From Thermoplasmata archaeon (GTDB lineage Archaea > Thermoplasmatota > Thermoplasmata > Lutacidiplasmatales > JAMCUS01): DNA of 64,000 bases. Below the pieces are notes generated by a model. The model made no database searches, was not told where the DNA came from, and was given only the letters and a program-made list of their open reading frames with translations. Both the position numbers and the translations under genes were made by a program. The DNA is taken from positions 6,000 through 69,999 of the forward strand of contig JBMFVL010000001.1 of assembly GCA_049966015.1 (NCBI GenBank), in the 5' to 3' direction. Of this stretch, positions 4,184 to 52,505 are shown in pieces; the first letter of the stretch is position 1; every line of letters begins with the position of its first letter.

Positions 4184-4903
4184 TTATTTGTTTTTATCAA
4201 CCATTTTTTCAGCTCTTTTTATAATACCCAACAAAACTTCATTATCTTCTTCTGTGGGCCATGAAGATATCAATATTTTCCTGACATGCAAGAGCACTTT
4301 TTTTCTTCTGTTCACGGGATAATCTATTTTTTCCATCAAGTTTTCTATTTCCTGAACTAATATTCTATAGATCTTTCCATTCATTTTTTCATTTGGTACT
4401 GGAAGATCTTTTTTCATATAATTGGCCATGTACAGTTCATACAAAACTATTCCAACAGCATGTGATAGATTCATTACACCATAGGTAGGGTTGGTAGGAA
4501 TTGTTACTGTGAAATCGCACATGTTGAGCTCTTCATTTGTTAACCCGTTATCTTCAGTACCAAACAAGATAGCACCTGTTCCTTTTCTTAAAGAACTCAT
4601 ATATGCCAGTGTTCTTGGGGATATGGCACTCCTTAATATGTTCCTTTTGCTTTTGCTATTTACACCAGTTGTGCCTATTACAACATCTGAATTTGATATC
4701 GCTTCTTCTATACTATCTACGTATTTTGCTTTTTCTAATACTGGATATGCATGCATAGCACGTTTTCTAGCTTCTAAACCTATTTCTGTAAGAGGGGAGA
4801 CAATAACCATATTGGTAAAGCCAAAATTCATCATCACTCTTGCTATGGCTCCAATATTACCTTCGTATTTTGGCTTTACGATCACTACTTTGTATTTTAG
4901 CAT
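4184..4903 (-). CDS. SpoU/TrmH-family RNA 2'-O-methyltransferase (TrmJ-like)
   Basis: SPOUT N-terminus KYEGNIGAIARVMMNFG with a C-terminal trefoil-knot region; 239 aa. Confidence 0.65.
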   Translation of the reverse strand: MLKYKVVIVKPKYEGNIGAIARVMMNFGFTNMVIVSPLTEIGLEARKRAMHAYPVLEKAKYVDSIEEAISNSDVVIGTTGVNSKSKRNILRSAISPRTLAYMSSLRKGTGAILFGTEDNGLTNEELNMCDFTVTIPTNPTYGVMNLSHAVGIVLYELYMANYMKKDLPVPNEKMNGKIYRILVQEIENLMEKIDYPVNRRKKVLLHVRKILISSWPTEEDNEVLLGIIKRAEKMVDKNK

Positions 4904-9697: not shown

Positions 9698-10333
9698 TCA
9701 ATTACTAGTGAATAGATAATTACCTTTCATTTCAATGCACTTTTTTATTTTGCCTTTTATTTCTTTGGAGAGTTTATCAGTTTTTTTCAATATTGCAGGA
9801 TACCCTTTTTTAGATAGTTCTATAATATTTTCTAAATCCACTTTGTTTCCTATGCTATAAATATATTTACCATTTTCAACACCTATTATTTCATCTCCAT
9901 CATATAAATAGGAAATGCCTTTTTCTGCTCTTATATTTCCAATTAATTTTGATTTGGCTATTCCTATGGCAGGAGTATCAAGCAACACACCTATTACTGT
10001 TGCAATTCCAGCCCTTCTAGGATGTGCTATGCCCTGACCATCTACTAGTATAAAATCAGGCTTAAAAGGTCTTAAGGCTCTCAACATAGCAGGGGCTTCT
10101 CTTGCAAATAAATATCCAGGTATATATGGTAAGGGGTTGGAGGATAATGCTACGTTATACCTTGAAATTTTTTTTGATTTGTCTATGAATAATGCAATGC
10201 CTATAGCGTAGTTGTGCGTATAGGAAACATCAACGGCTGCAACTTTGCTTATTGCTTCAAGTTTTAAATTTGATATTACAATATTTTTAGAAATTAGCTC
10301 CTGTATTTTTTTATAAAAATACATATTATACAT
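9698..10333 (-). CDS. nfi: Endonuclease V (deoxyinosine 3' endonuclease)
   Basis: Conserved blocks AAVDVSY, PYIPGYLFAREAP and LVDGQGIAHPRRAGIA. Confidence 0.85.
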   Translation of the reverse strand: MYNMYFYKKIQELISKNIVISNLKLEAISKVAAVDVSYTHNYAIGIALFIDKSKKISRYNVALSSNPLPYIPGYLFAREAPAMLRALRPFKPDFILVDGQGIAHPRRAGIATVIGVLLDTPAIGIAKSKLIGNIRAEKGISYLYDGDEIIGVENGKYIYSIGNKVDLENIIELSKKGYPAILKKTDKLSKEIKGKIKKCIEMKGNYLFTSN

Positions 10334-11387
10334 TTTTTAACCCATATTTTTTTATGATTTCTACCAAACTGCTTTCGGTTTTTATTATCTGCATACCACT
10401 TGCTTTATTAATCCTGTTCATAATAGCCAATCCAATTCCACTATAGGGAAAGATTTGTATAAATCCTACTCTGGCGTTTTTATAGTCCAGTTTTCTTAAT
10501 GATTCAAATAAATTACGTGCTACTTCGTATAGGTTTTTTTCGCTCCCTAGTTTTATAACCTCGTTAACATTGTTTAATGCGTTTTCATCTGTGCACAGGA
10601 TGATGGCATTATTTAGCTTCTTTTTCTTTAACTTTTTTATAATATCATCGGTAACAATAAATAAAGGTGTACTAGGTGCATAATGCCTATACTTCATTCC
10701 TGGTGTAATGGCAATTTGGGCGTATTTTTCACCTTTGGAATATTCAGATATTGATATATTTCCAAATATTTTTTCTAATTCTTCAACGGTATATGCACCC
10801 GGTCTTAATATTTCAGGGGGGCTGGTTAAAAAGTTAAGTATAGTTGATTCTACACCAAAAAAAGCATCTCCGCCGTCTATAATTAAATCAACTTTACCAT
10901 ATAAGTCATCTATAACGCTTTCTACTTTGACCGGGCTTGGTTTTCCGGAAGAATTAGCGCTGGGGGCTGCTATAGGGCAACCGGAATATTTTATAAGGGA
11001 TAATGCAATAGGATGTGCAGGAACCCTAACTGCGATGCTTTCAAGGTTGGCAGATACTTCCATGGGTATTGCCTTTTTCTTTTTTAATACTATAGTTAAA
11101 GGTCCAGGCCATACTTTATTCAATTTATGCATTATTTTGTAAGGGGTATAAGCAACCTTTTTTAGGTTTTTTATACTATCTATATGGACAATAAGGGGAT
11201 TATCAGAGGGCCTACCTTTGGCCATGAATATTTTCTTTGCACTGTTACCATCATATGCATTTGCACCTATACCATAAACTGTTTCTGTTGGAAAAGCAAC
11301 GGTTCCACCTTTTTTTATTATATTACCTGCTATTTTCATTAATTCTTTTTCAGGTTTAACTGGATTTACTTTAATGATTTTAGTCAT
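10326..11387 (-). CDS. sua5: Threonylcarbamoyl-AMP synthase Sua5/TsaC with a C-terminal Sua5 domain
   Basis: YrdC fold at the N-terminus (GGTVAFPTETVYGIGANA); 353 aa including the Sua5 C-terminal domain. Confidence 0.8.
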   Translation of the reverse strand: MTKIIKVNPVKPEKELMKIAGNIIKKGGTVAFPTETVYGIGANAYDGNSAKKIFMAKGRPSDNPLIVHIDSIKNLKKVAYTPYKIMHKLNKVWPGPLTIVLKKKKAIPMEVSANLESIAVRVPAHPIALSLIKYSGCPIAAPSANSSGKPSPVKVESVIDDLYGKVDLIIDGGDAFFGVESTILNFLTSPPEILRPGAYTVEELEKIFGNISISEYSKGEKYAQIAITPGMKYRHYAPSTPLFIVTDDIIKKLKKKKLNNAIILCTDENALNNVNEVIKLGSEKNLYEVARNLFESLRKLDYKNARVGFIQIFPYSGIGLAIMNRINKASGMQIIKTESSLVEIIKKYGLKNV

Positions 11388-11393
11388 GGAACT

Positions 11394-12053
11394 TCAATAC
11401 CTTTTGCTTAATATAATGAACATTAACGCTAAAAACATTTCACTAATTGCAGAAGGTATTGCTAGGAGGTATATTTTTAAAAACAATGGCAACGATACCA
11501 ACATAAAAACAGATATTATGAATACTGGATAATAAATAGATTGCATCAATTTATAGGACTTTACTAATTTCCCAATCACATAACCAGATGTGGAAATAAT
11601 CATTGTAAATGATCCTGCGAACAATAAAGCTACAATGTACAGATAGCTGAATGTATAGGGCAAAATTATATAAAGCAGGCTACCTCCTTCTACAAAAGCA
11701 ATACCGGTAGAAAAGGAGATGCCATAATAAGGAATATACCTTTTCGGCTTGAAAATTCCTGCGTTTATTGCAACATAAATTAACAGTACATGCACCAATG
11801 AAATGAAAATAATAAGCATTATAGAAAATAACAAATCATAAGATGTTGCTATAGCAATTAAAGATGTAAGGGTAAAATAATACATGATAAAACCTGCAAA
11901 CACCCCCAAAACAAATAACACTGCATATAATTTTTGGGAATTTGAATGTAATCGTACCTTCTCATATGCTAGAAAATAATAGCTTATTGCTGCAAAGGCT
12001 AAAGAATATATATAATAGAAAAAGAGGGACACTTTACCCCACTTCAGCACCAT
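11394..12053 (-). CDS. Polytopic membrane protein, function unknown
   Basis: Six predicted TM helices. Overlaps the next ORF by 20 bp, suggesting an operon. Confidence 0.4.
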   Translation of the reverse strand: MVLKWGKVSLFFYYIYSLAFAAISYYFLAYEKVRLHSNSQKLYAVLFVLGVFAGFIMYYFTLTSLIAIATSYDLLFSIMLIIFISLVHVLLIYVAINAGIFKPKRYIPYYGISFSTGIAFVEGGSLLYIILPYTFSYLYIVALLFAGSFTMIISTSGYVIGKLVKSYKLMQSIYYPVFIISVFMLVSLPLFLKIYLLAIPSAISEMFLALMFIILSKRY

Positions 12054-12465
12054 AATTCTGTTTTTCTTGCAATTTGTTAGGTTTCGTGCTCATTTGAGGT
12101 ATGGGAATAGGAGGGGGGAGATGCAGATCCCTTGCTAGTATTACCACTTCTGTTAGGCAATTGGCTAATATAGTTCCATGGAGGTCTTGGACTATATCTG
12201 CAGGAATTTGTGATGTACTTTTCCATTCCTTTGTTATTTTTTTTGCATCACACTCAGCCATAATTAAATTGCCTTCAATGTTAATTACACCGAGATTGCC
12301 AAATGAAGACGTAAACCTAAAATCCACTGAAACTTCAGTTTCAGATATGTCGTTTAATAAAATTATTGAACTGCTATGATCTATTTTTATATTGACAACT
12401 TTTTCATTCCCTTTGGAAAATTTTTTACCTTCAATAGACTTGAATTCAATTATTTTTATAATCAT
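12034..12465 (-). CDS. Hypothetical protein (143 aa)
   Basis: ORF co-oriented and overlapping with the downstream membrane protein; no recognisable motif. Confidence 0.35.
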   Translation of the reverse strand: MIIKIIEFKSIEGKKFSKGNEKVVNIKIDHSSSIILLNDISETEVSVDFRFTSSFGNLGVINIEGNLIMAECDAKKITKEWKSTSQIPADIVQDLHGTILANCLTEVVILARDLHLPPPIPIPQMSTKPNKLQEKQNYGAEVG

Positions 12466-12510
12466 AATTTTACTTTATGCAATTGGTCCTATAAATAGCT
12501 GATGTATTAA

Positions 12511-13287
12511 CTACAACGTTGTTAATTTGCCTTCAAAAAATTTCTTTATTTTTTCTGGTACATTACCATGATAAGATACAAACTGTGCATTAGGAGTTTT
12601 GTTTATCATTTCTATGCCGATAGAATCTGTGAATTCTTGAAATCTGAATTGGGGCATTATGTGACCATAACATATATTTTTTTTAATAGCATGATCAGTG
12701 AACCTCGGCGCATAATGCCCTCCCCCTATGCCAATAGATACCTTGCATTCGTTGTCAGTATTATCTTTTTTAAGGTTTAAAATCGCACCTAAAATGATTT
12801 GGTGTGCATTTGTATCATTCCACTCTTTTTCTGTGCTTCCGGATTCTATGAAAAAGAGAGGAATGTTTATTGTTGGGCCATGATGTGTTGCTTCATAGCT
12901 TACGTTATAACCTTCTATTTTATGGCTATTCATATAAATAAGGGCTTTTCTCATTTGGAGAGGTGCTGCTATTGATAATTTATAGCTCATACCGCCGTAA
13001 GGATTGTTGGAAAAATTTCCTGTTGTATGAACTGTCAAACTTTTTATGTTTTTTTCACTTTTATGGATGGATGGAAAAACGAGGCATTCTACCTCTTCCT
13101 CTTTCAATATTTCTTCAACGAAATCTGCTTTGAGATGGTTGATAGATGAATGTATTATGCTGAATTCATTGCTTCTGTATAAGGTATACTCATCTTGCAT
13201 TTCTGTTGATAAATCAAGTTTGTTTTTTAGTTCTAAAAATATTTTTTTTGCTACATTGTCATTATCATCAATATAAATCCAAATCAT
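12511..13287 (-). CDS. dtdA: D-aminoacyl-tRNA deacylase, archaeal type
   Basis: Strong matches to the archaeal DtdA family: YEATHHGP, FFIESGSTEKEW and IGIGGGHYAP. Confidence 0.8.
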   Translation of the reverse strand: MIWIYIDDNDNVAKKIFLELKNKLDLSTEMQDEYTLYRSNEFSIIHSSINHLKADFVEEILKEEEVECLVFPSIHKSEKNIKSLTVHTTGNFSNNPYGGMSYKLSIAAPLQMRKALIYMNSHKIEGYNVSYEATHHGPTINIPLFFIESGSTEKEWNDTNAHQIILGAILNLKKDNTDNECKVSIGIGGGHYAPRFTDHAIKKNICYGHIMPQFRFQEFTDSIGIEMINKTPNAQFVSYHGNVPEKIKKFFEGKLTTL

Positions 13288-22032: not shown

Positions 22033-22566
22033 TTAAATTTCAACGTTACCTTTAGATATTATCCAGTCACACCATAAGTCAGGTGGATGTTTGGATGGAG
22101 GGCATACAACCTCTTTAACAACTAAAGAAGGGTCTATCTCTTTAGCAAAGGATTGCAGATAACCTTTCCTTACAAAAACACACGGAAATTCACCTAAATT
22201 TTTCTTTATCCTTGTAGTTTGAATCCTACAGTTGTAGTTTTTTATTTCTACGTAATTGTCATTGTATATTATGTCTTTATTTTCCATGTATAAAAACCAA
22301 CCAGTCAGTTTCATGGCATTATAAAAATCTTTTAATGCATTGCCTGATGGCTCTATGTGTTTTTTTAGCCTTTTTCCTTCTAGTGCACCCATAATAGACC
22401 ATACTTCTTTGTCAATTTCAGTTGCGGATTCATTTCCGAATCTTTTTTCTATACCTAAAAAATATAACCCATCTACCCCCCATAAAGAAATCACATTTTC
22501 CAATAATATGGAAATTATTTTTTCCTTGGGCATGCTCATAAGGGTTTCTTTGTCTTTTTCATCCAT
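22033..22566 (-). CDS. Hypothetical protein (177 aa)
   Basis: Clean ORF with no recognisable motifs. Confidence 0.35.
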   Translation of the reverse strand: MDEKDKETLMSMPKEKIISILLENVISLWGVDGLYFLGIEKRFGNESATEIDKEVWSIMGALEGKRLKKHIEPSGNALKDFYNAMKLTGWFLYMENKDIIYNDNYVEIKNYNCRIQTTRIKKNLGEFPCVFVRKGYLQSFAKEIDPSLVVKEVVCPPSKHPPDLWCDWIISKGNVEI

Positions 22567-22650
22567 GTATTGAGTATTGCATTATAATATTTCTTTTTTT
22601 TTAATTGTTTATCGACAATTTTTATGTTTTTAAAGAACAAAAAAGATTTA

Positions 22651-22797
22651 TGGGAGCACTGGGAATTGAACCCAGGTCGGCGGGTAACTTCTTAGGGGAT
22701 CGATGCTCCAATTAATCATCATTTTTATTCAGATTACCCAAGTTTCTTCTTTTCCCCATAACTGGAGCCCGCTAGGATACCTCTACCCCATGCTCCC
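22651..22797 (-). tRNA. tRNA-Trp (anticodon CCA) with a 76-nt intron in the anticodon loop
   Basis: Minus-strand cloverleaf: acceptor GGGAGCA/TGCTCCC, anticodon stem GCGGG/CCCGC with loop CUCCAG[intron]A, T-arm CTGGG-TTCAATT-CCCAG. The intron (37/38 position) contains AUGAUGA and CUGA motifs. Confidence 0.75.
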
Positions 22798-22908
22798 ATG
22801 CACGTACATATTTTTGTATTGATATTTATAATTTTTTTATAAAATGGGCATAAACGAATCAAAACCAAAAAAATATATTGATATATTAGATATCATGTGT
22901 TGATTCTT

Positions 22909-23154
22909 ATGATGTTTGAAGTTACTATTAGTCTTAAAAAAGGTATATTTGATCCAGAAGGATATAACACTTTGAAAACCCTTAATATGCTTAACATAAA
23001 TGTAAAAAATGTATCTACTGCTAAGGTTTTTAGATTTGATGTTGACTCTAAAAATGAAAAAGATGGATATAATATAGTTAAATCAGCAGTTGATTCTTTG
23101 CTTGTAAACCCTGTTCTTCATGAGTATACCATAAAAAAGGTTGACGGACAATAG
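22909..23154 (+). CDS. purS: Phosphoribosylformylglycinamidine synthase subunit PurS
   Basis: About 80-aa PurS-like ferredoxin-fold protein (FEVTISLKKGIFDPEG ... VLHEY). Confidence 0.65.
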   Translation: MMFEVTISLKKGIFDPEGYNTLKTLNMLNINVKNVSTAKVFRFDVDSKNEKDGYNIVKSAVDSLLVNPVLHEYTIKKVDGQ

Positions 23155-29121: not shown

Positions 29122-29142
29122 CTTTTAAAATATGTTATGTTT

Positions 29143-29262
29143 AGGTTGGGGGAGCCTTCAAACAAGGCTGAGAGGATCGTGTGAATCGACCCCTATACAC
29201 CTGATCCAGGTAATGCTGGCGTAGGGAAACCCTTGTGTATGGTATACCCCTCCTGGGGATAA
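29143..29262 (+). promoter_or_regulatory. TPP (THI-box) riboswitch
   Basis: Conserved TPP aptamer elements in order: GGGGAGCC ... CTGAGAGG ... ACCCC ... ACCTGATCCAGGTAATGCTGGCGTAGGGAAACCC. The 3' segment CCCCTCCTGGGG lies just upstream of the ATG and could occlude the RBS. Confidence 0.8.
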
Positions 29263-29268
29263 TAAAAA

Positions 29269-30393
29269 ATGGATAAGATTGGTAAAAATTGGAAGTTTAA
29301 GATTTTAGTTGTTGTGGCTATTGTGGTATTAGCGACGGTATTTTATGAAGGATACGTGCTTTATGTACAAAATCAAAAGAGTTCTGAACCTACACTTGTG
29401 ATATACACATATGGATCGCTGTTCAAATACGGTGCCAATCCAAATGAAACAATGAATATCGTTTTCGGTACATTTGAAAAGAAATACCATGTAAATATAG
29501 AGATAGAATACCTGAATAACATTCTCCAGACTTTAGAATCCCAAAAATCGAATCCTCAGGCAGACCTTGTAATTGGTTTAAGTAATGTAGAGGCACCAAC
29601 AGCAATTGAGAATGGGTTATTGGATCCGTATAACTATACTAACGATATTCCTTCCTTTTTGATCAATGGCCTTAGCAGCACCCACTACCTTACACCATAT
29701 GAATATTCATATTTAGCAATTGACTATACCATGTCCTTTTATAACCAGACCAATGGAAATGTTAGCCATTCTAATTTTTTGAATTTCTTAAACAGTACAT
29801 GGGCAAAAAATTTAATTTTAGAATCTCCGTTGACAGATACAACAGGCACAAATTTTTTGATATGGCAGATCGCTTTCTATGAATATGTACTTCACGACAA
29901 TAATTGGATTAGCTGGTGGAAAAGCATAAAGAATTATGCACTGATTGAAAGTGACTGGAGTACTGCCTTTAACCTTTTTACCACAAGTAATAATCCCCAA
30001 CAGCTCGTAGCCAGTTATTCTACTGACCCAGCTTATGAAATATACAACAACGGTGCGATGAACGGTACATTTAGCTATAACAGCACATTGTCTTATTATA
30101 ACAATACATATTACGGTTGGGATACTATATTCGGTATAGGAATAGTGCATGGTTCCACCCATTTGCTTTTGGACCAGGAATTTATCAACTGGTTTTTAAG
30201 CGGAACTGTACAATCTCAAATTCCTTTAAATGAATGGGCATACCCTGCAAATAATACAGTTATGTTACCTCCTGCATATAAATATGCCGTGAATCCCTCT
30301 AATGTTGTTCCTTTAAACAATTACCTTACACAACAACAAATATATTCAAACATGACATCGTGGTTAGAACAATGGCAATTAGCAATGAGTTGA
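29269..30393 (+). CDS. ABC transporter substrate-binding protein (thiamine/TbpA-like), membrane-anchored
   Basis: N-terminal TM anchor plus periplasmic-binding fold. First gene after the TPP riboswitch, followed by a permease and an ATPase. Confidence 0.6.
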   Translation: MDKIGKNWKFKILVVVAIVVLATVFYEGYVLYVQNQKSSEPTLVIYTYGSLFKYGANPNETMNIVFGTFEKKYHVNIEIEYLNNILQTLESQKSNPQADLVIGLSNVEAPTAIENGLLDPYNYTNDIPSFLINGLSSTHYLTPYEYSYLAIDYTMSFYNQTNGNVSHSNFLNFLNSTWAKNLILESPLTDTTGTNFLIWQIAFYEYVLHDNNWISWWKSIKNYALIESDWSTAFNLFTTSNNPQQLVASYSTDPAYEIYNNGAMNGTFSYNSTLSYYNNTYYGWDTIFGIGIVHGSTHLLLDQEFINWFLSGTVQSQIPLNEWAYPANNTVMLPPAYKYAVNPSNVVPLNNYLTQQQIYSNMTSWLEQWQLAMS

Positions 30394-31964
30394 GATGGAA
30401 ACTGTTTAAATGGTTAGGCATTTTAGCAGTTTTATTGCCTTTTATTTTATTTTTGTTTGTGCCTTTAATCTATTCTATATATTATGTACATCCTTTTTAT
30501 ATATACACCTTTTTTAATACACCATACAAGATAAAAATTTTTGAATTTTCATTGGAAAATTCTATGATACAGGGATTTTTGAGTGCGTTATGCTCTTTTG
30601 CAATAGGATATCCTGTGGGAATTATAATAGGGTTGTATCAATTCAGGTTTAAGAAGATTGTTCTCACATTATCCTACATTGCTTTTTTTATGCCATCTAT
30701 TTTGATGGTTTTTGCGTTCATTGAATTTTTTTATTTATTTCACTTTTACAATTTTTTTGGATTGTACGGGATTATTTTGGTTAACACTACTTTTAATGCC
30801 CCATTGATAGCAATTTTCACATCGAGTTCTACAGATCATATACCTGTTTCTTTAATATACAGTGCCAGATTGCTTAAGGCAAATATCATTAAAATTTTTA
30901 GAAAAATTTATTTCCCCTACACATATGAATCTGCTTTAATAGGTTTTATATTGGCGTTTATTTATTCTTTCATGGGCTTTACAGCACCTCTTATGATAGG
31001 GGGAACTTCTAATTACACCATGGAAATATGGATATACATACTATACAAATCATTTTTTGATGTTAAAGGAGCGGTTACTGTTGCTTTATTGCAAATTCTA
31101 ATTTTAATTATACCTGTTGCCATATATTTTATTTTATCATCTAAATCAATGTATCTTTCAAATTTATCAAGGAAGAAAGATAACTTATATTCATCGGCTA
31201 ATTACAAAAAAAGCCTTGCTGCATATGTGTTAGTTTCTTTATATACACTGTTTATTTCAATTCCATTTTTTACTATATTATATTATACATTGTTAGGAAC
31301 AGGGAAATTATCAATTATACCATTTTTAACTTTATTCAGCAATATAACCACGTATAAGATAGGGGTGCCTTATGTTAATGTTATTATAAATTCCTTATTT
31401 TTTTCAAGTATTGCAATGTTTTTATCAATGGGAATATCATTGATAGTGCTTTATTTTGGTGAAGAACTTATATGGATTAAGATTTCTATTGTGCTTCCAT
31501 TGATCGTTTCACCCATAGTATTAGCATTGGTAAATTACATGTTTTATATCAACATTTTTATCAACGTTTGGCCTATAATTATTATAGCACAGACAATGGT
31601 GTCTTTACCTATCGTATCTAGACTCATTGATAACTCCATAAAAATGGTACCTAAAAATCTGGAGTATTCTGCTATGTTGCTACATACAAGCAAATCAGAC
31701 ATATTTTTTAAAATAAAATTACCTATAATTAAATACACATTGATATTATCATCAATGCTCTCTTTTGTTATGGCATTAGGGGAGTTTGGTGCAACTTTTT
31801 TTATATTTACACCATTATTCACAACTATTCCTGTAAGCATATATGAATTTCAAAGTTTGAGGAATTTCACTCTTGCTTACGCTTCAGCTTCTATATTGTT
31901 TGTTATTACTTTTGTAATTCTTTATACTGTTTTTAGCAAGGAGGCATATAAATGGCAAAACTAG
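30372..31964 (+). CDS. ABC transporter permease with duplicated 6-TM domains (ThiP/FbpB family)
   Basis: About 530 aa with two permease repeats, the same size class as ThiP. Confidence 0.6.
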   Translation: MAISNELRWKLFKWLGILAVLLPFILFLFVPLIYSIYYVHPFYIYTFFNTPYKIKIFEFSLENSMIQGFLSALCSFAIGYPVGIIIGLYQFRFKKIVLTLSYIAFFMPSILMVFAFIEFFYLFHFYNFFGLYGIILVNTTFNAPLIAIFTSSSTDHIPVSLIYSARLLKANIIKIFRKIYFPYTYESALIGFILAFIYSFMGFTAPLMIGGTSNYTMEIWIYILYKSFFDVKGAVTVALLQILILIIPVAIYFILSSKSMYLSNLSRKKDNLYSSANYKKSLAAYVLVSLYTLFISIPFFTILYYTLLGTGKLSIIPFLTLFSNITTYKIGVPYVNVIINSLFFSSIAMFLSMGISLIVLYFGEELIWIKISIVLPLIVSPIVLALVNYMFYINIFINVWPIIIIAQTMVSLPIVSRLIDNSIKMVPKNLEYSAMLLHTSKSDIFFKIKLPIIKYTLILSSMLSFVMALGEFGATFFIFTPLFTTIPVSIYEFQSLRNFTLAYASASILFVITFVILYTVFSKEAYKWQN

Positions 31965-32887
31965 AGCTTGTAGACATAAGCAAAAAATATGGAAATTGGA
32001 AACTAGGCCCGGTATCAGTTACATTAAATGACGACGAATCTTTGACTATTCTTGGCCCTACTGGTTCAGGAAAATCAACGTTGCTCAAAATTATTGCAGG
32101 CATAGAAATGCCTGATGATGGCAAGGTTTTGGTTGATGGAAAAGATATAACAAACTTGCCTATTTATGAAAGGGACATAGGTATGATTTTTCAGGATTAT
32201 TCTCTATTTCCGCATTTAACTGCAAAAGAAAATATTTATTTTGGCTTGGACAATATCCCGTTGAGTAACAATAAAAAGGAAAGTCTTTTTAATAACATTA
32301 TTAAAACTTTGCATATTGAAAAATTAATGAATAAGTATCCACATCAACTTTCAGGTGGAGAAAAACAAAGAATTGCAATTGCAAGATCAGTAGTAATGAA
32401 ACCTTCTTTTTTGCTTTGTGATGAACCTCTGTCTTCAGTTGATTCACGTACTAGGGAAGAACTTCGCAGTGAACTAAAATCTTTGCAATACACTGACCAT
32501 ATCCAGATGGTTTATGTTACACATGATCATCTTGAAGGGATGTTTATCGGTGACAAAATTATGATTATAAATGAAGGTAAAGTAGAACAAGTATCTTCTT
32601 CAACAGATATTTATATGCATCCGAAAACACCTTTTGTTGCGTGGTTTGTGGGATTGAATGTGTTAAATATTGATAATAAAAGAATTGCTGTTGACCCATT
32701 TGATATAGAAATATCAGATGACGGAATTATTGAAGGGCATGTAATATCAGGGAGATATATATACAATACATGGATAGGTTATGTGAAGGTAGGCAACCAG
32801 ATGATAAAATTGCAAAGTTATTCAGATCAATTAAAATACATTGGCAAGGATGTCAAAATAAAAATTAAAAGATACATAAATTTGTAA
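31952..32887 (+). CDS. ABC transporter ATP-binding protein with a C-terminal TOBE-like domain (ThiQ/PotA-like)
   Basis: Walker A GPTGSGKST, signature LSGGEKQR, Walker B LLCDEP; C-terminal extension. Confidence 0.8.
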   Translation: MAKLELVDISKKYGNWKLGPVSVTLNDDESLTILGPTGSGKSTLLKIIAGIEMPDDGKVLVDGKDITNLPIYERDIGMIFQDYSLFPHLTAKENIYFGLDNIPLSNNKKESLFNNIIKTLHIEKLMNKYPHQLSGGEKQRIAIARSVVMKPSFLLCDEPLSSVDSRTREELRSELKSLQYTDHIQMVYVTHDHLEGMFIGDKIMIINEGKVEQVSSSTDIYMHPKTPFVAWFVGLNVLNIDNKRIAVDPFDIEISDDGIIEGHVISGRYIYNTWIGYVKVGNQMIKLQSYSDQLKYIGKDVKIKIKRYINL

Positions 32888-33435
32888 GATTAAATAAAAT
32901 TACCATCTAACATCTTTATATTATATATTTGCCATTAAATTTGCCTTTTTTCGTAGTTGAATAAGCATGACAATAATAATAGAATTTATAAAAATATTAT
33001 AGCATATCTGAAATGTTTTACCAGTAACATTAAAAATCATATAACATGATTTATAAATTTTTCATTCATTTTTCTCGTTTTAATGGAAAATTGGTTTGAT
33101 ATATACCAAAAAAATAGGGATAGGTATAATTTCTCCACTTTATATAGGAAATTATTCAGAATACCACAAATTAACTCTATTTATATAATATAATGTATAC
33201 TTTTACTAGATCTTAAATATCATCTACAATTAGAATGTTAAGGCTTTACATCTATTTTTAATTTACAGCATAGTACGCGCCATTTAATCTTTAAAACTTA
33301 CTTATTATGTAACTATGATGACCAATGTAGCTAATATTTGCAACATATATGTGAAATAAAATAACAATGTTTGCGTAATAAAATTTAACACTTTATAAAA
33401 CTAAAAAAATTATAAAATTAAAAGGTTTTGTTGTT

Positions 33436-36400
33436 TTACATTGCCGGAGGCTGTTGCTGGTTCTGGTCTTGTACTGGAGGTGCCTGTTGCTCTGTGGGTT
33501 GTGCTTGCTCAGGTGCTGGGGGTGCTGTTGTGGGGGATTTGCCCTTTTTCTTCATCATCATGAATACTGCGACAACAATGATGACAATTATTACAATCAC
33601 TACTACTGCGTATATCAGATCATTGTTGCTGCTTGATGATGAGGTTGTAGTCTTGGTCGGTACTGTTGTGGTAACGGTTATTGTAACAGTGTTTGTTTTT
33701 ATTGTTGTACCTGCACTGTCTGTAACATTTACGTATGCTGTGTATGTTCCTGCCTTTGCATATTTATATGTGGTTGCGTTAGAAGAACTTGTCGTTGTGT
33801 TTCCATTTCCGAAGTAGTACTTGTATGTGTATGGAGCTACACCACCCTGGGCTGTAACATTGAAGTATACTGTTCCGTTTACAATTACGCTTGTTGGAGA
33901 TACCGTTAAAGTAGCTGTCAGCGGAGCAATCACTTTGGATATAACCAGTACATATTGTTGCTCCGTGGGTATGGGCATACCCTTGTAAGTGCTTGTTGCA
34001 TTGACCAATATACTTGTGTTGGCAGGAGTTGATGAACTAGTGCTTACAGTTACTTCAACAAAACCAGTTGCGTTGGTAGTTCCACTTGTAGCTGATAAGG
34101 ATATACCGTTTGCAGAGGGGGAAATGTAATAGCCACTCTGGTTAAGGGCAGCCAAGCTCAAAGATACAGGCATATTTGCCATCGGGCTACCTACCTGGTT
34201 AAGTATTTGGGCAGATATGTTAACGCTCTTTCCAATTACAACTACTCCACTTGAAGCATGTACATTTAGCATTGGCTGGTTATATGCCAGCGTTGTTCCT
34301 TGCTGCTCTATTGCAATTGAATTGAAACCGCTTATAGGACCGGCACCACCTGCAAATACCGTAGCTGTTAAGTAAAACTCTACGTTGGGTATTAGAGGTG
34401 TAAAGGCAGGCCATCCACCTGGTACCATGTTATACGTTTTCTTATTCTGTACGTATTTGTAGAAAACAGATCCGTTGAAGGTTATGTTGATGTACCCTGC
34501 AGATGTTGTATTTACAAATAGCTCATAGTTGCTGTCTACCACCTTTGTTCCTGTTATCGGGTTGGAAGAATCCTTTATTGCCTGGTACTGTACATTTGTT
34601 CCTGCTGTTACTGTTATGTTGCCCTGGTACCTGCCTGTGAGCTGTGTTAAGGTAAGCATGACAGGAGTGTTACTCACTGGCTTTCCTCCAGATGTAACAT
34701 GTATGCTTATCGGAATACTCTGATTCCAGTTTACGTTGTAAAAGTTGTTTGTGGGTGTAATCGTTGATGATACCACTACATTATCTGGTGTAGCACCACC
34801 TGCTGAAAATGGAATGTCTGTAAACTGGTTGCCTACATTGGGTAGGTAAGCTTCAAATCCACCTGCCAATGAAAGGTAAGCAGATGCCGCATGGAATCCC
34901 GATGGCTGTACAAACCCTTTGGAACCTACGAAATTGTAGTAGGACAACGTATTGTACCCGCTTGCAGCAGTTGCAAAGAACTCTAAAGGTACAGGGGATG
35001 TGCTTGTTACGCCTGCATAATTAACCCAGTTGACTTGCCTCATTATACCATATGCACCACCGGTAATCCACAAATAAAACACTTGCTGGTATGTGGGCAT
35101 GAAGGTATTCAATGCACTGCTTAGTGAATAACTTATATTGGCGTATCCAGCTGCATTGGTTGTTATTGAGTTTGTTTGTGTAGTCCCGTTCCAGAACATT
35201 GAACTATCGTAATACTGATAACCACTGGATAAAGCAGAGGGATTCACTATTCCTGGGAATCCATCTAGAACAGCAGGGCTTACTTGCTGGAAAGTAACTG
35301 GAATGTTTGGTTCACCTTTTCCAGTTGCTGTATTGACAGCCCTTACTACCACTGACAAATTTGAACTCAGACCTGCTGTCGGACTTAAGGATACAACTTG
35401 AAGTGTGTATGGAGGAACAGCACTGTTGCCAACCATGACCTCTGTGTTGTTTATAGCCATGTTCTCATATCCACCTTTGTAGGCTGTTGCAGTTATGTTA
35501 ACCAGTGTTCCTGGCATTGTGTTCTTTGCCGTGAACTCAAATTTGGCTATACCATTAGCATTTGTCAAACCACCTGGAACAGGGATCAATCCCTGGTCGG
35601 AGAACATACCAACCGTTGCTGCCACTACTGGCTTGCCATTAGAAGTTACCGATACGTTGAACGTATATGTTTGCCCTGGCCATACCGTATTGTTTGCTGG
35701 CAATCCGCTTATTGAAATATTCAGTTCTGGAAGATATCCAGGTATGAAAGACAATGGGGACACAACACCAGAAGCGTTTGTCAATGTCAAATATCCTGTA
35801 GAATTGGATATTGCATGAACTTGCTGCAATAATATCCCGCTTGTATCAAAATCCATGTAAGCAACCCCTGCTGGGAAATTACCTGCAGAAGGGTTTAGAT
35901 TCCATATAACTACAGAGGCATTTGCAACGCCTTTTCCACTGCTATCCACTACCCTGTAGGGAAGCACGTTGGTTGTGTTCATTGCCATTGTCGGCAATGT
36001 CCCGTGTGTTAATATCATCGTATTGCCTTCTACTGTCAGTGCAACGCTTGCATATGTAGGTACATACGTCACAGTGGATGTTGAATTTTCTGTTATCGAT
36101 GCCTGCAAAGTCACTTTATCAGTTGCAGCAGGTGGCAATTGCGAGAAGTTGAACTGGTCAGTACCATACGTGCCGTACACCTGCTGGACTATTCCATTAA
36201 CAATGGAGAAGTTCGTGGTGAACTGCCCTGCAATGTTGGTTGTACCTGTTTTGGAACCGAAGAACACCAATCCCAGTGGGTTGGCGCTCATTGACACTGT
36301 TGCACCCTGTATTGGCATACCATTGTCACCTGTAACGGTAACTGTTACATTTCCTGTGCTTCCACCTTTATATACATTCACGTTCTGGTCCAACTTAATG

Positions 36401-38370
36401 GTTGCATGCAAATGCACAGTAGTACTGCTTGCCACAGGGGCTTTGTAATTGCTCGGAACCAAGTTAGCAAAAGTCCACCCGTTGTTAACAGCAGGTGATG
36501 ATGAAGGACTTGCTACCCATCCACTCCAGTGCATAATACTGTAGGCATCTATATCATCAGATGAGTACAGCAATATGTATGGCAACTGCACTGCCAGTAT
36601 ACCTTCGGCCTCCTTTATTTCAGCTTGCCTTATAGAGGGATTCATTTGACTGTTGGATTCCGCAAGCAAATTATCAAAGGTTGCATTGAAGAACCCTTCG
36701 TAATTTGCCCCCACAGGAGGTTGCTGGCTTGATTGGAATAAGGAATATAACCAGGATGAGGGATCCCCTCCTGGTGCACTTAAAACCCATCCAAGGATGA
36801 ACATATCAAAGTTGTATGGGGGTGTGCTTATATCTGCAACGATTACGTTGAAATCCGTTGGTACTGCTTGCGCATCCAATCCAGCTTCTTGCATCCATTG
36901 CTGTATGTATTGCGCTGTGGTTGCCCTTATCGGATCGTATGATGCAGGTGGAACCAGTATGGGTATCTGCAAAACCGTGCCGTTGTACTCAAAGTAATTG
37001 TTTGGACCTGGTGTTTGCCCAGCATGCTGCAGAGTCATCCCAGGAACGGCCAACAGATCTTTATCTGCCTGGGTAATGTTGAATGTGTAAGGATACTGAG
37101 AATTTACAGATGCATTGTAATACGCCCCAGACATCGGTAATACTACATTTGTACCAGTTATACCGTATCCTTGAAGTATATTGGATAATATAAATTGCTT
37201 GTTTACCAAGTGTGCTACAGCTTGCCTGAATCCTATGTAATTAAATGGGGCTCTTCTCAAATTGAACGTCATGTAAAAGAACCCGAAAGAAGGTTCTAAA
37301 GATAATCCTATACCAGGAGTGGATTGCAATTGGCTTACGTATGAAGGAGGTATGGACCAGTCTACCAAATCGATTTCACCGCTCATCAATGCCAATACCG
37401 CTGAAGTAGTAGAACCGTATAATACATATTGGACTTCATTCATATGTGCCTGGAAAGAACCCATCCAGTAGTTGGGGTTGGCGTACATTATTGCACCTAC
37501 GTTAGGAGTCCATCCGCCTTGGTAAAACTGACCGCTTCCTATATCAGCTAAAGCGTACTTTGTACCACCTACACTAATATAACCACCATCCCAGGTGCTT
37601 ACAGCCCCATACATCTCACTGTTGTTATTAGACCACATGTGGTTCTGCCATATTTTTCCTGGTATCAGGTATTCAGTAAGGGTCATGTAATAAAACGGAG
37701 CATATGGTTGATTTAAATTGAAGACTACTACATTTCCAGTTGGACCTTTTGGCATCGTTACATTAGCTACAAATATACCTGCAGGTGTGCCTGTTGATAT
37801 TGTACCGTTTGTCAAGTATTTGATTGTGGATGCTGGAACAGGGCTACCAGATGGATTTACAGCTAATGGCAGCAGAGAGGGATTTGTGTTGGGTGAATTT
37901 ATGCCTACCTGGTATGAAACAAAAACATCCCATGCATCCAAATGTGTATTTGCAACTGATGATGCTGTTGCGTTGGTCATCATTGCCTGTGGAACGATCC
38001 ATGTAATGTTGGTTGCAAAGGTTACTGTGAATGATGTGAAGTTAGCATTTGGGGTTATGCTTGTGGCAGCCCAGTTCATGTAACCGTTGTTAGATATTGG
38101 AATGCTTGTTAACGAGTCGTAGAAGTAACCATAATAATTGGCATCCCATATACTGTTATCCAGTGGATTGAATGGATTCAATCCCGCAAAATCTTGTTGG
38201 TTACCAATAGTAAGAGTGCCGCTCGGTTTAATGTTGCTTTTAGGCTGTGCTGGATGTATAACCTGGTTTATTTTTGCAACATTAGGGGATGCAGCTGCAC
38301 TCAATGCGCTGCTCAACATTAAAAAAGTCGCTACGAAAGCTAGGCTCAACAATAAGTATCGTTTAATCAT
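33436..38370 (-). CDS. Giant cell-surface glycoprotein (1644 aa): signal peptide, OppA-like family-5 solute-binding domain, Ig/PKD-like repeats, Thr/Ser linker, C-terminal TM anchor and a Q/P-rich cytoplasmic tail
   Basis: Signal peptide MIKRYLLLSLAFVATFLMLSSALSAAAS. The first roughly 650 aa resemble SBP family 5 (GEIDLVDW ... FRQAVAHLVNKQ). A PKD-like repeat lies near the C-terminus (GTVYFNVTAQGGVAPYTYKYYFGNGNT). N-x-S/T sequons are very dense. The C-terminus reads TTTSSSSSNN - hydrophobic helix - KKKGK - QP-rich tail. Confidence 0.6.
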   Translation of the reverse strand: MIKRYLLLSLAFVATFLMLSSALSAAASPNVAKINQVIHPAQPKSNIKPSGTLTIGNQQDFAGLNPFNPLDNSIWDANYYGYFYDSLTSIPISNNGYMNWAATSITPNANFTSFTVTFATNITWIVPQAMMTNATASSVANTHLDAWDVFVSYQVGINSPNTNPSLLPLAVNPSGSPVPASTIKYLTNGTISTGTPAGIFVANVTMPKGPTGNVVVFNLNQPYAPFYYMTLTEYLIPGKIWQNHMWSNNNSEMYGAVSTWDGGYISVGGTKYALADIGSGQFYQGGWTPNVGAIMYANPNYWMGSFQAHMNEVQYVLYGSTTSAVLALMSGEIDLVDWSIPPSYVSQLQSTPGIGLSLEPSFGFFYMTFNLRRAPFNYIGFRQAVAHLVNKQFILSNILQGYGITGTNVVLPMSGAYYNASVNSQYPYTFNITQADKDLLAVPGMTLQHAGQTPGPNNYFEYNGTVLQIPILVPPASYDPIRATTAQYIQQWMQEAGLDAQAVPTDFNVIVADISTPPYNFDMFILGWVLSAPGGDPSSWLYSLFQSSQQPPVGANYEGFFNATFDNLLAESNSQMNPSIRQAEIKEAEGILAVQLPYILLYSSDDIDAYSIMHWSGWVASPSSSPAVNNGWTFANLVPSNYKAPVASSTTVHLHATIKLDQNVNVYKGGSTGNVTVTVTGDNGMPIQGATVSMSANPLGLVFFGSKTGTTNIAGQFTTNFSIVNGIVQQVYGTYGTDQFNFSQLPPAATDKVTLQASITENSTSTVTYVPTYASVALTVEGNTMILTHGTLPTMAMNTTNVLPYRVVDSSGKGVANASVVIWNLNPSAGNFPAGVAYMDFDTSGILLQQVHAISNSTGYLTLTNASGVVSPLSFIPGYLPELNISISGLPANNTVWPGQTYTFNVSVTSNGKPVVAATVGMFSDQGLIPVPGGLTNANGIAKFEFTAKNTMPGTLVNITATAYKGGYENMAINNTEVMVGNSAVPPYTLQVVSLSPTAGLSSNLSVVVRAVNTATGKGEPNIPVTFQQVSPAVLDGFPGIVNPSALSSGYQYYDSSMFWNGTTQTNSITTNAAGYANISYSLSSALNTFMPTYQQVFYLWITGGAYGIMRQVNWVNYAGVTSTSPVPLEFFATAASGYNTLSYYNFVGSKGFVQPSGFHAASAYLSLAGGFEAYLPNVGNQFTDIPFSAGGATPDNVVVSSTITPTNNFYNVNWNQSIPISIHVTSGGKPVSNTPVMLTLTQLTGRYQGNITVTAGTNVQYQAIKDSSNPITGTKVVDSNYELFVNTTSAGYINITFNGSVFYKYVQNKKTYNMVPGGWPAFTPLIPNVEFYLTATVFAGGAGPISGFNSIAIEQQGTTLAYNQPMLNVHASSGVVVIGKSVNISAQILNQVGSPMANMPVSLSLAALNQSGYYISPSANGISLSATSGTTNATGFVEVTVSTSSSTPANTSILVNATSTYKGMPIPTEQQYVLVISKVIAPLTATLTVSPTSVIVNGTVYFNVTAQGGVAPYTYKYYFGNGNTTTSSSNATTYKYAKAGTYTAYVNVTDSAGTTIKTNTVTITVTTTVPTKTTTSSSSSNNDLIYAVVVIVIIVIIVVAVFMMMKKKGKSPTTAPPAPEQAQPTEQQAPPVQDQNQQQPPAM

Positions 38371-51914: not shown

Positions 51915-52505
51915 TTGATGATAGGCATTTATGCAACCTCTCTTGATGACTCTTTTGAAACAATAAATATATTGCGTGAAAGGAAAATACCATTCAAATT
52001 GTTAGATGATTTCAATAACATTCCTGTAGATGTTACAATAGTTATAATGTTTCCTCAAGGGTGTATTGTTGGAAAAGAATTTAAAATAACAGTAGGGTTA
52101 AAAGCAGGCATCCTTGTTGACCTTGCTTTGGCTGTTATAAATGGAAAAAAAGCAGAAAAGATTATATTAGGAATAGACCCTGGCCCATATCCAGCCATGG
52201 CGACAATTATAAACAATGTTGTTATGGATGTAGAACAATTTTACAACATGAACAAGATGGTGGATAAGGTTAAATCATATAGGTATATTTCTAACAAAAT
52301 AATATTGAAAATTGGTAATGGTGATCCAGTTTATGGTCAAAGAATAATTAAAAAATTACATACAGTTGTGGATGAAACCATCATTGTAAATGAAAAAAAC
52401 ACTTCTAAAATTGCGAATAAATTTGATATTCCCTATTCTTCCAATGATGAAAAAAGGGTAAGACGCAATAAAGGTGCCGCTATTGCCATAGGGCTTGCAG
52501 ACTAA
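51915..52505 (+). CDS. Hypothetical protein (196 aa)
   Basis: ORF with a GIDPGPY segment reminiscent of RNase-H-fold nucleases; weak. Confidence 0.3.
   Translation: MMIGIYATSLDDSFETINILRERKIPFKLLDDFNNIPVDVTIVIMFPQGCIVGKEFKITVGLKAGILVDLALAVINGKKAEKIILGIDPGPYPAMATIINNVVMDVEQFYNMNKMVDKVKSYRYISNKIILKIGNGDPVYGQRIIKKLHTVVDETIIVNEKNTSKIANKFDIPYSSNDEKRVRRNKGAAIAIGLAD

Follow-up and report, generated by a model that had tools for sequence, protein, structure and literature searches.

A tRNA-Trp intron as a probable double-guide box C/D RNA with variant terminal boxes in a Thermoplasmata archaeon

Can a tRNA intron still guide the methylation of two nucleotides in its own precursor when its outermost boxes have departed from the spelling of its family? 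The question is raised by a tRNA-Trp gene of a Thermoplasmata archaeon (GTDB lineage Archaea; Thermoplasmatota; Thermoplasmata; Lutacidiplasmatales; JAMCUS01) in a stretch of 64,000 nucleotides (GenBank assembly GCA_049966015.1, contig JBMFVL010000001.1, positions 6,000 to 69,999 of the forward strand); this whole stretch is hereafter the window, and positions are counted from its first letter. The intron of archaeal tRNA-Trp was described in 2000-2001 as a box C/D guide RNA for 2'-O-methylation of C34 and U39 (Cm34 and Um39), and this function was shown in Haloferax volcanii, as reported in PMC2584109, PMC4090602, and PMC7994747. The guide intron is tabulated for 26 archaea (Grosjean 2008, PMC2584109, Additional file 4), with at least 29 archaea given in the main text of that paper. 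The tabulated introns include those of four Thermoplasmatales (T. acidophilum, T. volcanium, F. acidarmanus, and P. torridus), which have box C UGAUUA, box D AUGA, a D' guide directed to position 39, and a D guide directed to C34 (PMC2584109). An initial annotation of the window, made from the letters alone, had proposed that the 76-nt intron of its tRNA-Trp gene is the same device in a Thermoplasmatales-like genome. Our analysis supports that interpretation: the intron is probably a double-guide box C/D small RNA (sRNA) that directs Cm34 and Cm39 of its own pre-tRNA. It is another member of a catalogued family, its presence is expected, and nothing about it is conceptually new. The sole specialist interest lies in a conserved uridine-free box C and a UCGA box D, a natural test of the tolerance of L7Ae and Nop5 for variation in the terminal kink-turn (k-turn).

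Guides and boxes within the intron

A complete pre-tRNA-Trp(CCA) gene of 147 nt, comprising a 71-nt mature tRNA and a 76-nt intron, occupies exactly the span that had been annotated (22651..22797, on the (-) strand, as are all features of the gene given below). Direct reading agrees here with a match to the Rfam tRNA model RF00005 (22797..22651 (-), 46 bits, E 1.3e-8, model positions 1-71), which was obtained in a permissive scan and depends on permitting a long insert in the anticodon loop. No tRNA was found at 22651-22797 by ARAGORN with bacterial settings or by an Rfam scan at the gathering threshold. Bacterial-mode tRNA finders overlook the gene, and routine annotation would make this metagenome-assembled genome (MAG) seem to be without tRNA-Trp. 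By direct reading, the 5' exon (36 nt, tRNA positions 1-37; 22762..22797) ends in ...GCGGG-CU-CCA-G37, with the anticodon C34 C35 A36 at 22765..22763 and C34 itself at 22765. The 3' exon (35 nt, positions 38-73; 22651..22685) starts with A38-CCCGC, places C39 at 22684, and does not encode the CCA end. The intron (22686..22761) lies between them at the canonical 37/38 position.

Read in the RNA sense, the intron is UUAU-GGGGA-A-AAGAAGA-AACUUGGGUAAU-CUGA-AUAAAA-AUGAUGA-UUAAUUGGAGCA-UCGA-UCCCC-UAAGAAGUU. The strands GGGGA (22753..22757) and UCCCC (22695..22699) pair as a terminal stem in the minimum free energy (MFE) structure from RNAfold, and this stem has two roles, being the C-helix in the terminal k-turn and helix h' in the bulge-helix-bulge (BHB) at the splice junctions. 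Enclosed by it are, in order, box C, AAGAAGA (22745..22751), non-canonical against a consensus of RUGAUGA and placed by MAFFT alignment and by its position 12 nt 5' of D'; the 12-nt D' guide AACUUGGGUAAU (22733..22744); a canonical box D', CUGA (22729..22732); the D'-C' linker AUAAAA (22723..22728), delimited by reading and by comparison with a sister species; a canonical box C', AUGAUGA (22716..22722); the 12-nt D guide UUAAUUGGAGCA (22704..22715); and box D, UCGA (22700..22703), placed by the guide search and by alignment, which is non-canonical (consensus CUGA; AUGA in Thermoplasmata) and retains G-A. Boxes D' and C', assigned by reading and family alignment, are those of the initial annotation, which had recognized a D'-C' arrangement in CUGA (22732..22729) followed after 6 nt (AUAAAA) by AUGAUGA (22722..22716); profile and alignment give the same register.

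The terminal boxes are a different matter. The strings that had been taken for them, AUGGGGA (22759..22753) and CUAA (22695..22692), are present, but the actual boxes are AAGAAGA and UCGA. The two strings are separated from D' and C' by 20 nt in place of 12, have no G-A dinucleotides where true boxes carry them, and would bring no target to the fifth nucleotide; they align with the terminal-stem columns of relatives and belong to the terminal stem and BHB outer helix.

Guides and boxes were identified by an objective search of about 125 tRNA-Trp introns. In each, we took the longest ungapped duplex in which an intron base is paired with C34, or with nucleotide 39, and from that base read the 4-mer beginning five nt downstream and then the 7-mer ending 12 nt upstream of that 4-mer. 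For the window the search returned AAGAAGA/CUGA (8 bp, C39) and AUGAUGA/UCGA (10 bp, C34); for Thermoplasmata, Archaeoglobi, and Thermococci it returned UGAUUA, UGAUGA, or UGAGGA, then CUGA or CCGA, then UGAUGA, then AUGA or CUGA. The D' guide forms 8 contiguous bp with G(-3)U(-2)U(-1)A38 C39 C40 C41 G42 (guide strand UUGGGUAAU), and the fifth nucleotide upstream of D' (CUGA) is a G that stands opposite C39. The D guide forms 10 contiguous bp with G31 C32 U33 C34 C35 A36 G37 U(+1) U(+2) A(+3) (guide strand UAAUUGGAGC), and the fifth nucleotide upstream of D (UCGA) is again a G, opposite C34; within it, at 22711..22705, is the UUGGAGC that had been noted as complementary to the anticodon arm, and it pairs with G31-G37. 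Both box spacers measure exactly 12 nt. Given these spacers and the fifth-nucleotide register, the intron is therefore a regular double-guide C/D sRNA in its layout. By the fifth-nucleotide rule, the D' guide is predicted to select C39 and the D guide the wobble nucleotide C34. The initial annotation had cited C34 and U39 as the targets in Haloferax and other euryarchaea: both positions do stand at the fifth nucleotide here, but position 39 is C in this tRNA, so the predicted product is Cm39 and not Um39. In annotation, the intron merits the label of C/D guide sRNA, with Cm34 and Cm39 as its predicted products.

This arrangement of guides and boxes is far beyond chance. Among 200,000 dinucleotide-preserving permutations of the intron within its real exons, a duplex of 7 bp or more put C34 five positions upstream of an NNGA in 3.1%, and C39 fell in the equivalent register in 0.7%. 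Both were in register in 34 permutations (0.017%), and none of the 200,000 also carried xxGAxGA heptamers 12 nt upstream.

Conservation among relatives and in a sister species

Relatives were collected by an exon-anchored pattern scan, with one genome per species, which found at least 119 loci. After de-duplication, the canonical-layout introns among the matches listed numbered 65, and all counts out of 65 refer to these. Thermoplasmata MAGs and Oxyplasma meridianum account for most of them, with exons that hardly differ from those of the window. A profile built from the 65 introns, with the window left out, has one significant match in the 64-kb window (22746..22696 (-), 22 bits, E 6e-6), which places D', C', and D in the assigned register; the alignment is local and stops short of box C positions 1-5. 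The suggestion that a Thermoplasmatales-like genome carries the device holds. The RNAalifold consensus of the intron alignment contains no base pairs, so the profile is a sequence-only model. Its next best match (52444..52459, E 0.75) falls inside an open reading frame (ORF) and was set aside as chance. Existing models do not reach the family: no Rfam C/D family matched the intron at its gathering threshold, the best scores of 11-20 bits (E 1 or more) coming from snoZ101 (19.6 bits, threshold 44), sR20 (14.3, threshold 44), sR3 (11.4, threshold 41), and sR39 (11.2, threshold 50). No Rfam model represents the tRNA-Trp intron guide family.

In a MAFFT alignment of 67 anticodon arms with their introns, AAGAAGA falls column for column under AUGAUUA/GUGAUGA and UCGA falls under AUGA/CUGA. 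The eight G-A positions of the four boxes are invariant in all 67 sequences, the window included; D' CUGA and C' AUGAUGA match the family consensus at every invariant column, and the C-D' spacer is 12 nt in 64/65 relatives. The exon target positions are fixed by the search pattern and are uninformative for covariation, and the evidence for pairing comes from the intron side of each duplex. Between the D guide and the first intron nucleotides (columns 12-14/59-61), the pairs are UA:53/CG:10/AU:3, UA:36/GC:17/CG:11, and AU:49/GC:17. Between the D' guide and the last intron nucleotide (columns 38/95), they are CG:60/UA:3/AU:2, both AU pairs belonging to the window and its sister. Overall, 88% of guide/target cells are paired, compared with 29-43% after the partners are slid by one to three columns.

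These pairs bear on the possibility that the excised intron has its main targets in trans, among other RNAs such as rRNA, and that its fit to its own exons is secondary. In vitro work on H. volcanii, as reported in PMC2584109, favors a trans-acting ribonucleoprotein (RNP), and excised tRNA introns are described in PMC7994747 as stable circles in several archaea. The 64-kb window contains no rRNA genes. However, both guides fit the tRNA-Trp anticodon arm, each duplex includes three intron nucleotides, and the family covariation links the guides to positions of their own intron. We regard action mainly in trans as the most improbable of the alternatives considered here: because both guides match the anticodon arm in duplexes that take in three intron nucleotides each, the best substrate is the unspliced pre-tRNA-Trp.

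A closer comparison came from a metagenome scan in which the lineage-specific T-loop GGGTTCAATTCC served as the query. One true relative was found, locus L122, and the seven further matches were unrelated. The sister species shares 88% DNA identity with the window over 5.8 kb, with gene order conserved. Its intron differs at 1 of 76 bases, an A to U change at 22728 in the D'-C' linker, and its tRNA exons at 0 of 71, compared with 12 of 99 in the 5' flank, 29 of 84 in the 3' flank, and about 8% in the neighboring ORFs. At 12% divergence, the binomial probability of no more than one change in 76 bases is 7e-4. Since the same odd boxes are found in two species, they are conserved and are not a private mutation.

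A former guide that is now an inert, spliced-out spacer would owe such conservation to the needs of splicing or to locally slow mutation. In principle a loss of function could be borne, since in H. volcanii both the intron and its methylations are dispensable (Joardar 2008, as cited in PMC4090602). Yet splicing requires a BHB at the intron ends only and not 60 internal bases, and 75/76 bases are conserved against a flank divergence of 12-35%. Moreover, every box keeps its G-A dinucleotides, the two spacers and the two guide duplexes have survived intact, and a change in the D' guide matches the altered 3' end of the intron (A-U here, C-G in relatives). An inert intron is, in our judgment, very improbable. 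A double guide for C34 and C39 is the likely alternative, and for it the weight falls on the terminal motif.

The terminal motif and the splice site

The terminal motif combines conserved and altered features. Box C retains G49-A50, for tandem sheared G·A pairs, and departs from U at position 2 (loop L3) and position 5 (3b), both of which are A. In box D, position 1 (4n) is a U that forms G·U with box C G6, and position 2 (3n) is a C that faces box C A5; relatives have A or C at position 1. In k-turn terms, the loop is AAA, with the usual G·A at 1b·1n and A·G at 2b·2n. Across the family, box C position 6 and box D position 1 are UA:42, GC:23, and GU:2 (the window and its sister) and are never unpaired. 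This covariation confirms the k-turn register, in which box C G3 faces D A4, A4 faces D G3, position 5 faces D2, and position 6 pairs with D1. The motif has kept its G·A and A·G pairs and its 4b:4n pair, with 12-nt spacers, the stem GGGGA/UCCCC, and boxes that align with those of relatives, and three positions that are invariant or nearly so in relatives have changed.

A BHB is present at the junctions, in the relaxed and not the strict form. Its 5' bulge is A36 G37 ^ U (22763..22761), and its 3' side (22685..22691), of standard archaeal geometry, comprises GAAG (22691..22688) and the 3-nt bulge U U ^ A38 (22687..22685). In the central helix, C32 U33 C34 C35 (CUCC) faces GAAG with three pairs and a C34·A mismatch; the outer helix h' consists of one U-A pair, two mismatches, and then the 5 bp of GGGGA/UCCCC. 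The CUCC/GAAG helix with its mismatch occurs in 55/67 family members, and for that reason the C34·A mismatch is typical of the family and does not mark this gene as defective.

Several points nonetheless weigh against a double guide in full working order. Box C position 2 is U in 65/65 relatives and A here, box C position 5 is U in 61/65 and A here, and box D position 2 is U in 64/65 and C here. These spellings give the terminal k-turn A·C where relatives have U·U at 3b·3n, and a G·U wobble at 4b·4n. Assembly of L7Ae and Nop5 on the exact AAGAAGA/UCGA motif is a step that we infer, and a Pfam scan of 27 of the 58 ORFs in the window found no genes for fibrillarin, Nop5, or L7Ae. The variant motif occurs in just one close relative, L122, and so offers no covariation within the lineage. 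On the splicing side, there are the C34·A mismatch in the BHB central helix and the two h' mismatches, and the BHB fold lies 5 kcal/mol above the MFE in a nearest-neighbor model, a difference that is not decisive either way.

The changes in the terminal motif could describe a half-active guide, in which the internal C'/D' motif directs one methylation and the terminal AAGAAGA/UCGA motif binds L7Ae and Nop5 poorly, with a C34 guide that is decaying or weak. The three invariant or near-invariant positions altered in the terminal motif favor this account, as does a local profile alignment that leaves out box C positions 1-5. Against it, the C34 guide makes the longer of the two duplexes (10 bp), its spacer is still exactly 12 nt, and its register at the fifth nucleotide holds. 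The motif retains both G-A dinucleotides and the 4b:4n pair, and neither its two boxes nor the D guide differ in L122, a species with 12% divergence elsewhere. The H. volcanii intron functions with GGACGA/CCGA as its terminal boxes (PMC2584109, Additional file 4). Furthermore, in work of the Lilley laboratory, addition of L7Ae led to the folding of every Kt-7/box C/D hybrid variant so treated, regardless of how the variant behaved in Mg2+ alone (PMC5689011, PMC4382518). We consider a half-active guide unlikely, although less so than an inert intron, and we think that the terminal C/D motif would work, because L7Ae folds Kt-7/box C/D hybrids and because the terminal boxes of H. volcanii are also degenerate.

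The comparison with Kt-7 can be taken further. Kt-7 of Haloarcula marismortui, which is reported to be bound by L7Ae (PMC3884654, PMC5689011), has the bulged strand GAA-GA-A where the window has AAA-GA-A: each has a 3-nt purine loop ending in A, followed by G-A and by A at 3b. They differ in that Kt-7 has G at 3n and C:G at 4b:4n, whereas the window has C at 3n and G·U at 4b:4n. The resemblance is one of local sequence only and not of descent or context. A Kt-7-like spelling of the terminal motif is absent from the 65 listed relatives and from the 26 published tRNA-Trp introns. We lean toward the view that a thinly sampled Thermoplasmatota lineage, represented by the window and L122, has a functional box C/D RNP whose terminal k-turn contains a uridine-free box C. 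If this is so, the natural sequence space of C/D motifs is widened, and the terminal motif might be the weaker assembly site, imposing an order on the two methylations.

For a double guide of this kind, the following course of events would apply. The gene would be transcribed as a 147-nt pre-tRNA-Trp, whose intron would fold into a box C/D sRNA with a terminal motif (AAGAAGA/UCGA) closed by GGGGA/UCCCC and an internal motif (AUGAUGA/CUGA). By homology, L7Ae, Nop5, and fibrillarin would assemble on these two k-turn-type motifs. The two 12-nt spacers would then pair with the anticodon-arm halves of unspliced pre-tRNA-Trp, in cis or on another molecule, the D' guide on G(-3) to G42 with C39 opposite its fifth nucleotide and the D guide on G31 to A(+3) with C34 opposite, and fibrillarin would make Cm39 and Cm34. 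Methylation would have to precede splicing, because each duplex uses three intron nucleotides and opens the anticodon stem and the splice-site structure. Once methylated, the anticodon arm would refold into the relaxed BHB, with bulges AG^U and UU^A, helix CUCC/GAAG, and the C/D terminal stem as outer helix, and the splicing endonuclease would then excise the intron.

Genomic context and comparison with known systems

The tRNA-Trp gene lies by itself, flanked by a PurS gene (22897..23154, +) on one side and a DUF6125 gene (22033..22566, -) on the other, and no ORF of at least 80 aa overlaps it on either strand. In a window of 33.7% G+C, the TATA-like element TTATAAATA (22823..22831 (-), by direct reading), 26-34 nt 5' of the tRNA, is likely its archaeal promoter. 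A 43-nt block upstream of the tRNA (22850..22808 (-), GTTTATGCCCATTTTATAAAAAAATTATAAATATCAATACAAAAATA) has 1 difference from L122, the sequence further upstream being divergent, and is consistent with a promoter containing two TATA-like runs. A T6 run (22639..22644 (-), also by direct reading), 7 nt 3' of the tRNA end, is likely an archaeal oligo-T terminator. The nearest named homologue of the DUF6125 neighbor, in a Thermoplasmatota MAG, is 62% identical, and no tRNA-Trp lies beside it at that locus; it is from this distance, and from the lack of an adjoining tRNA-Trp, that we describe the lineage as thinly sampled.

Elsewhere in the window, an ORF resembling SpoU-family 2'-O-methyltransferases (239 aa; 4184-4903 (-)) adjoins an SRP54-type GTPase domain protein (320 aa) and prefoldin, and a housekeeping run at 9698-13287 (-) contains endonuclease V, Sua5, D-aminoacyl-tRNA deacylase, tRNA-Thr, and a class II aminoacyl-tRNA synthetase. 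A thiamine pyrophosphate (TPP) riboswitch (Rfam, 72 bits; 29138-29244 (+)) lies 24 nt 5' of a three-gene operon (29269-32887 (+)) encoding a double BPD_transp_1 permease, an ATP-binding cassette (ABC) ATPase, and a protein of 374 aa for which even a cutoff of E 0.01 gave no Pfam match. This operon probably encodes a thiamine ABC importer whose binding protein lies outside described families. It is followed by a gap of 548 nt (32888-33435), the window's largest stretch without an ORF of at least 70 aa, and then by a 1644-aa ORF (33436-38370 (-)).

The scans also brought up tRNA-Trp introns of other layouts. In Micrarchaeota (L029 2367-2470 (+), L107, L119) and Altiarchaeales (L066 7694-7798 (-), L120), a 5' C34 guide with a D-like box (CAGA/CGGA/CUGA) is followed by a hairpin and then by a box C-like AUGAAGA/AUGACGA. 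In the Micrarchaeota introns a C39 guide follows this box, and there is no recognizable D'. From its sequence, this layout looks like a circular permutation of the usual order. Crenarchaeal-type introns from Thermoproteota, Desulfurococcales, and Sulfolobales MAGs (L005, L006, L013, L027, L034, L047, L058, L093, L096, L098, L118, and others) form another set, many of which retain just a C39 guide, a D'-like box (CUGA/AUGA/UCGA/GAGA), a short hairpin, GAUGA, and a C34 guide; the box search recognized no terminal box C or box D at the expected spacing in them.

Generic archaeal box C/D sRNAs (the Pyrococcus sR families in Rfam) resemble the intron in a core of about 55-60 nt with boxes of the RUGAUGA/CUGA type and two 12-nt guides. 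They share the fifth-nucleotide rule with it, and they use the L7Ae/Nop5/fibrillarin machinery, whose use by the window intron would follow by homology. They differ in that they are free-standing genes with mostly rRNA targets.

The intron is homologous to the pre-tRNA-Trp guide intron of H. volcanii, as the latter is described from Clouet d'Orval 2001 and Singh 2004 in PMC2584109 and PMC4090602. Both lie at 37/38 of tRNA-Trp(CCA), follow the order C-guide-D'-linker-C'-guide-D within a terminal stem, and direct the D' guide to position 39 and the D guide to C34, with intron nucleotides taken into both duplexes. In both, the terminal boxes are degenerate and keep G-A (PMC2584109, Additional file 4). 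In contrast, the H. volcanii intron is 103 nt long, with a long D'-C' hairpin and a longer D' guide, whereas in the 76 nt of the window intron the linker takes 6-7 nt and both spacers are strictly 12 nt. H. volcanii has U at position 39 and the window has C, the box spellings are unlike, and the function that is experimental in H. volcanii is predicted for the window.

A further comparison is with Thermoplasmatales introns, namely the four in PMC2584109 and those of about 45 listed Thermoplasmata MAGs and Oxyplasma meridianum. These share with the window the host tRNA, near-identical exons, box order, 12-nt spacers, targets, and the relaxed BHB CUCC/GAAG. A subgroup of Thermoplasmata that includes Oxyplasma meridianum (L008, L020, L023, L024, L039, L049, L060, L070, L075, L089, L090) has the D guide GACUGGAACU, as in published Thermoplasma; this guide mismatches C32 of its own GGCUCCAG anticodon loop, and the A·C within the duplex is conserved (alignment columns 6/67). 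Where Thermoplasmatales have UGAUUA/AUGA as terminal boxes, with U·U at 3b·3n and U-A at 4b:4n, the window has AGAAGA/UCGA, with A·C and G·U. Its terminal stem GGGGA/UCCCC is 2 nt farther from the boxes than usual, the homologous stem in relatives being UAUGGG/CCCAUA, and its D'-C' linker, counted as 7 nt in this comparison, is the longest among those compared (3-6 in listed relatives). Finally, the intron of the window ends in GUU, whereas those of its Thermoplasmatales relatives end in GAG, and the guide has changed to match.

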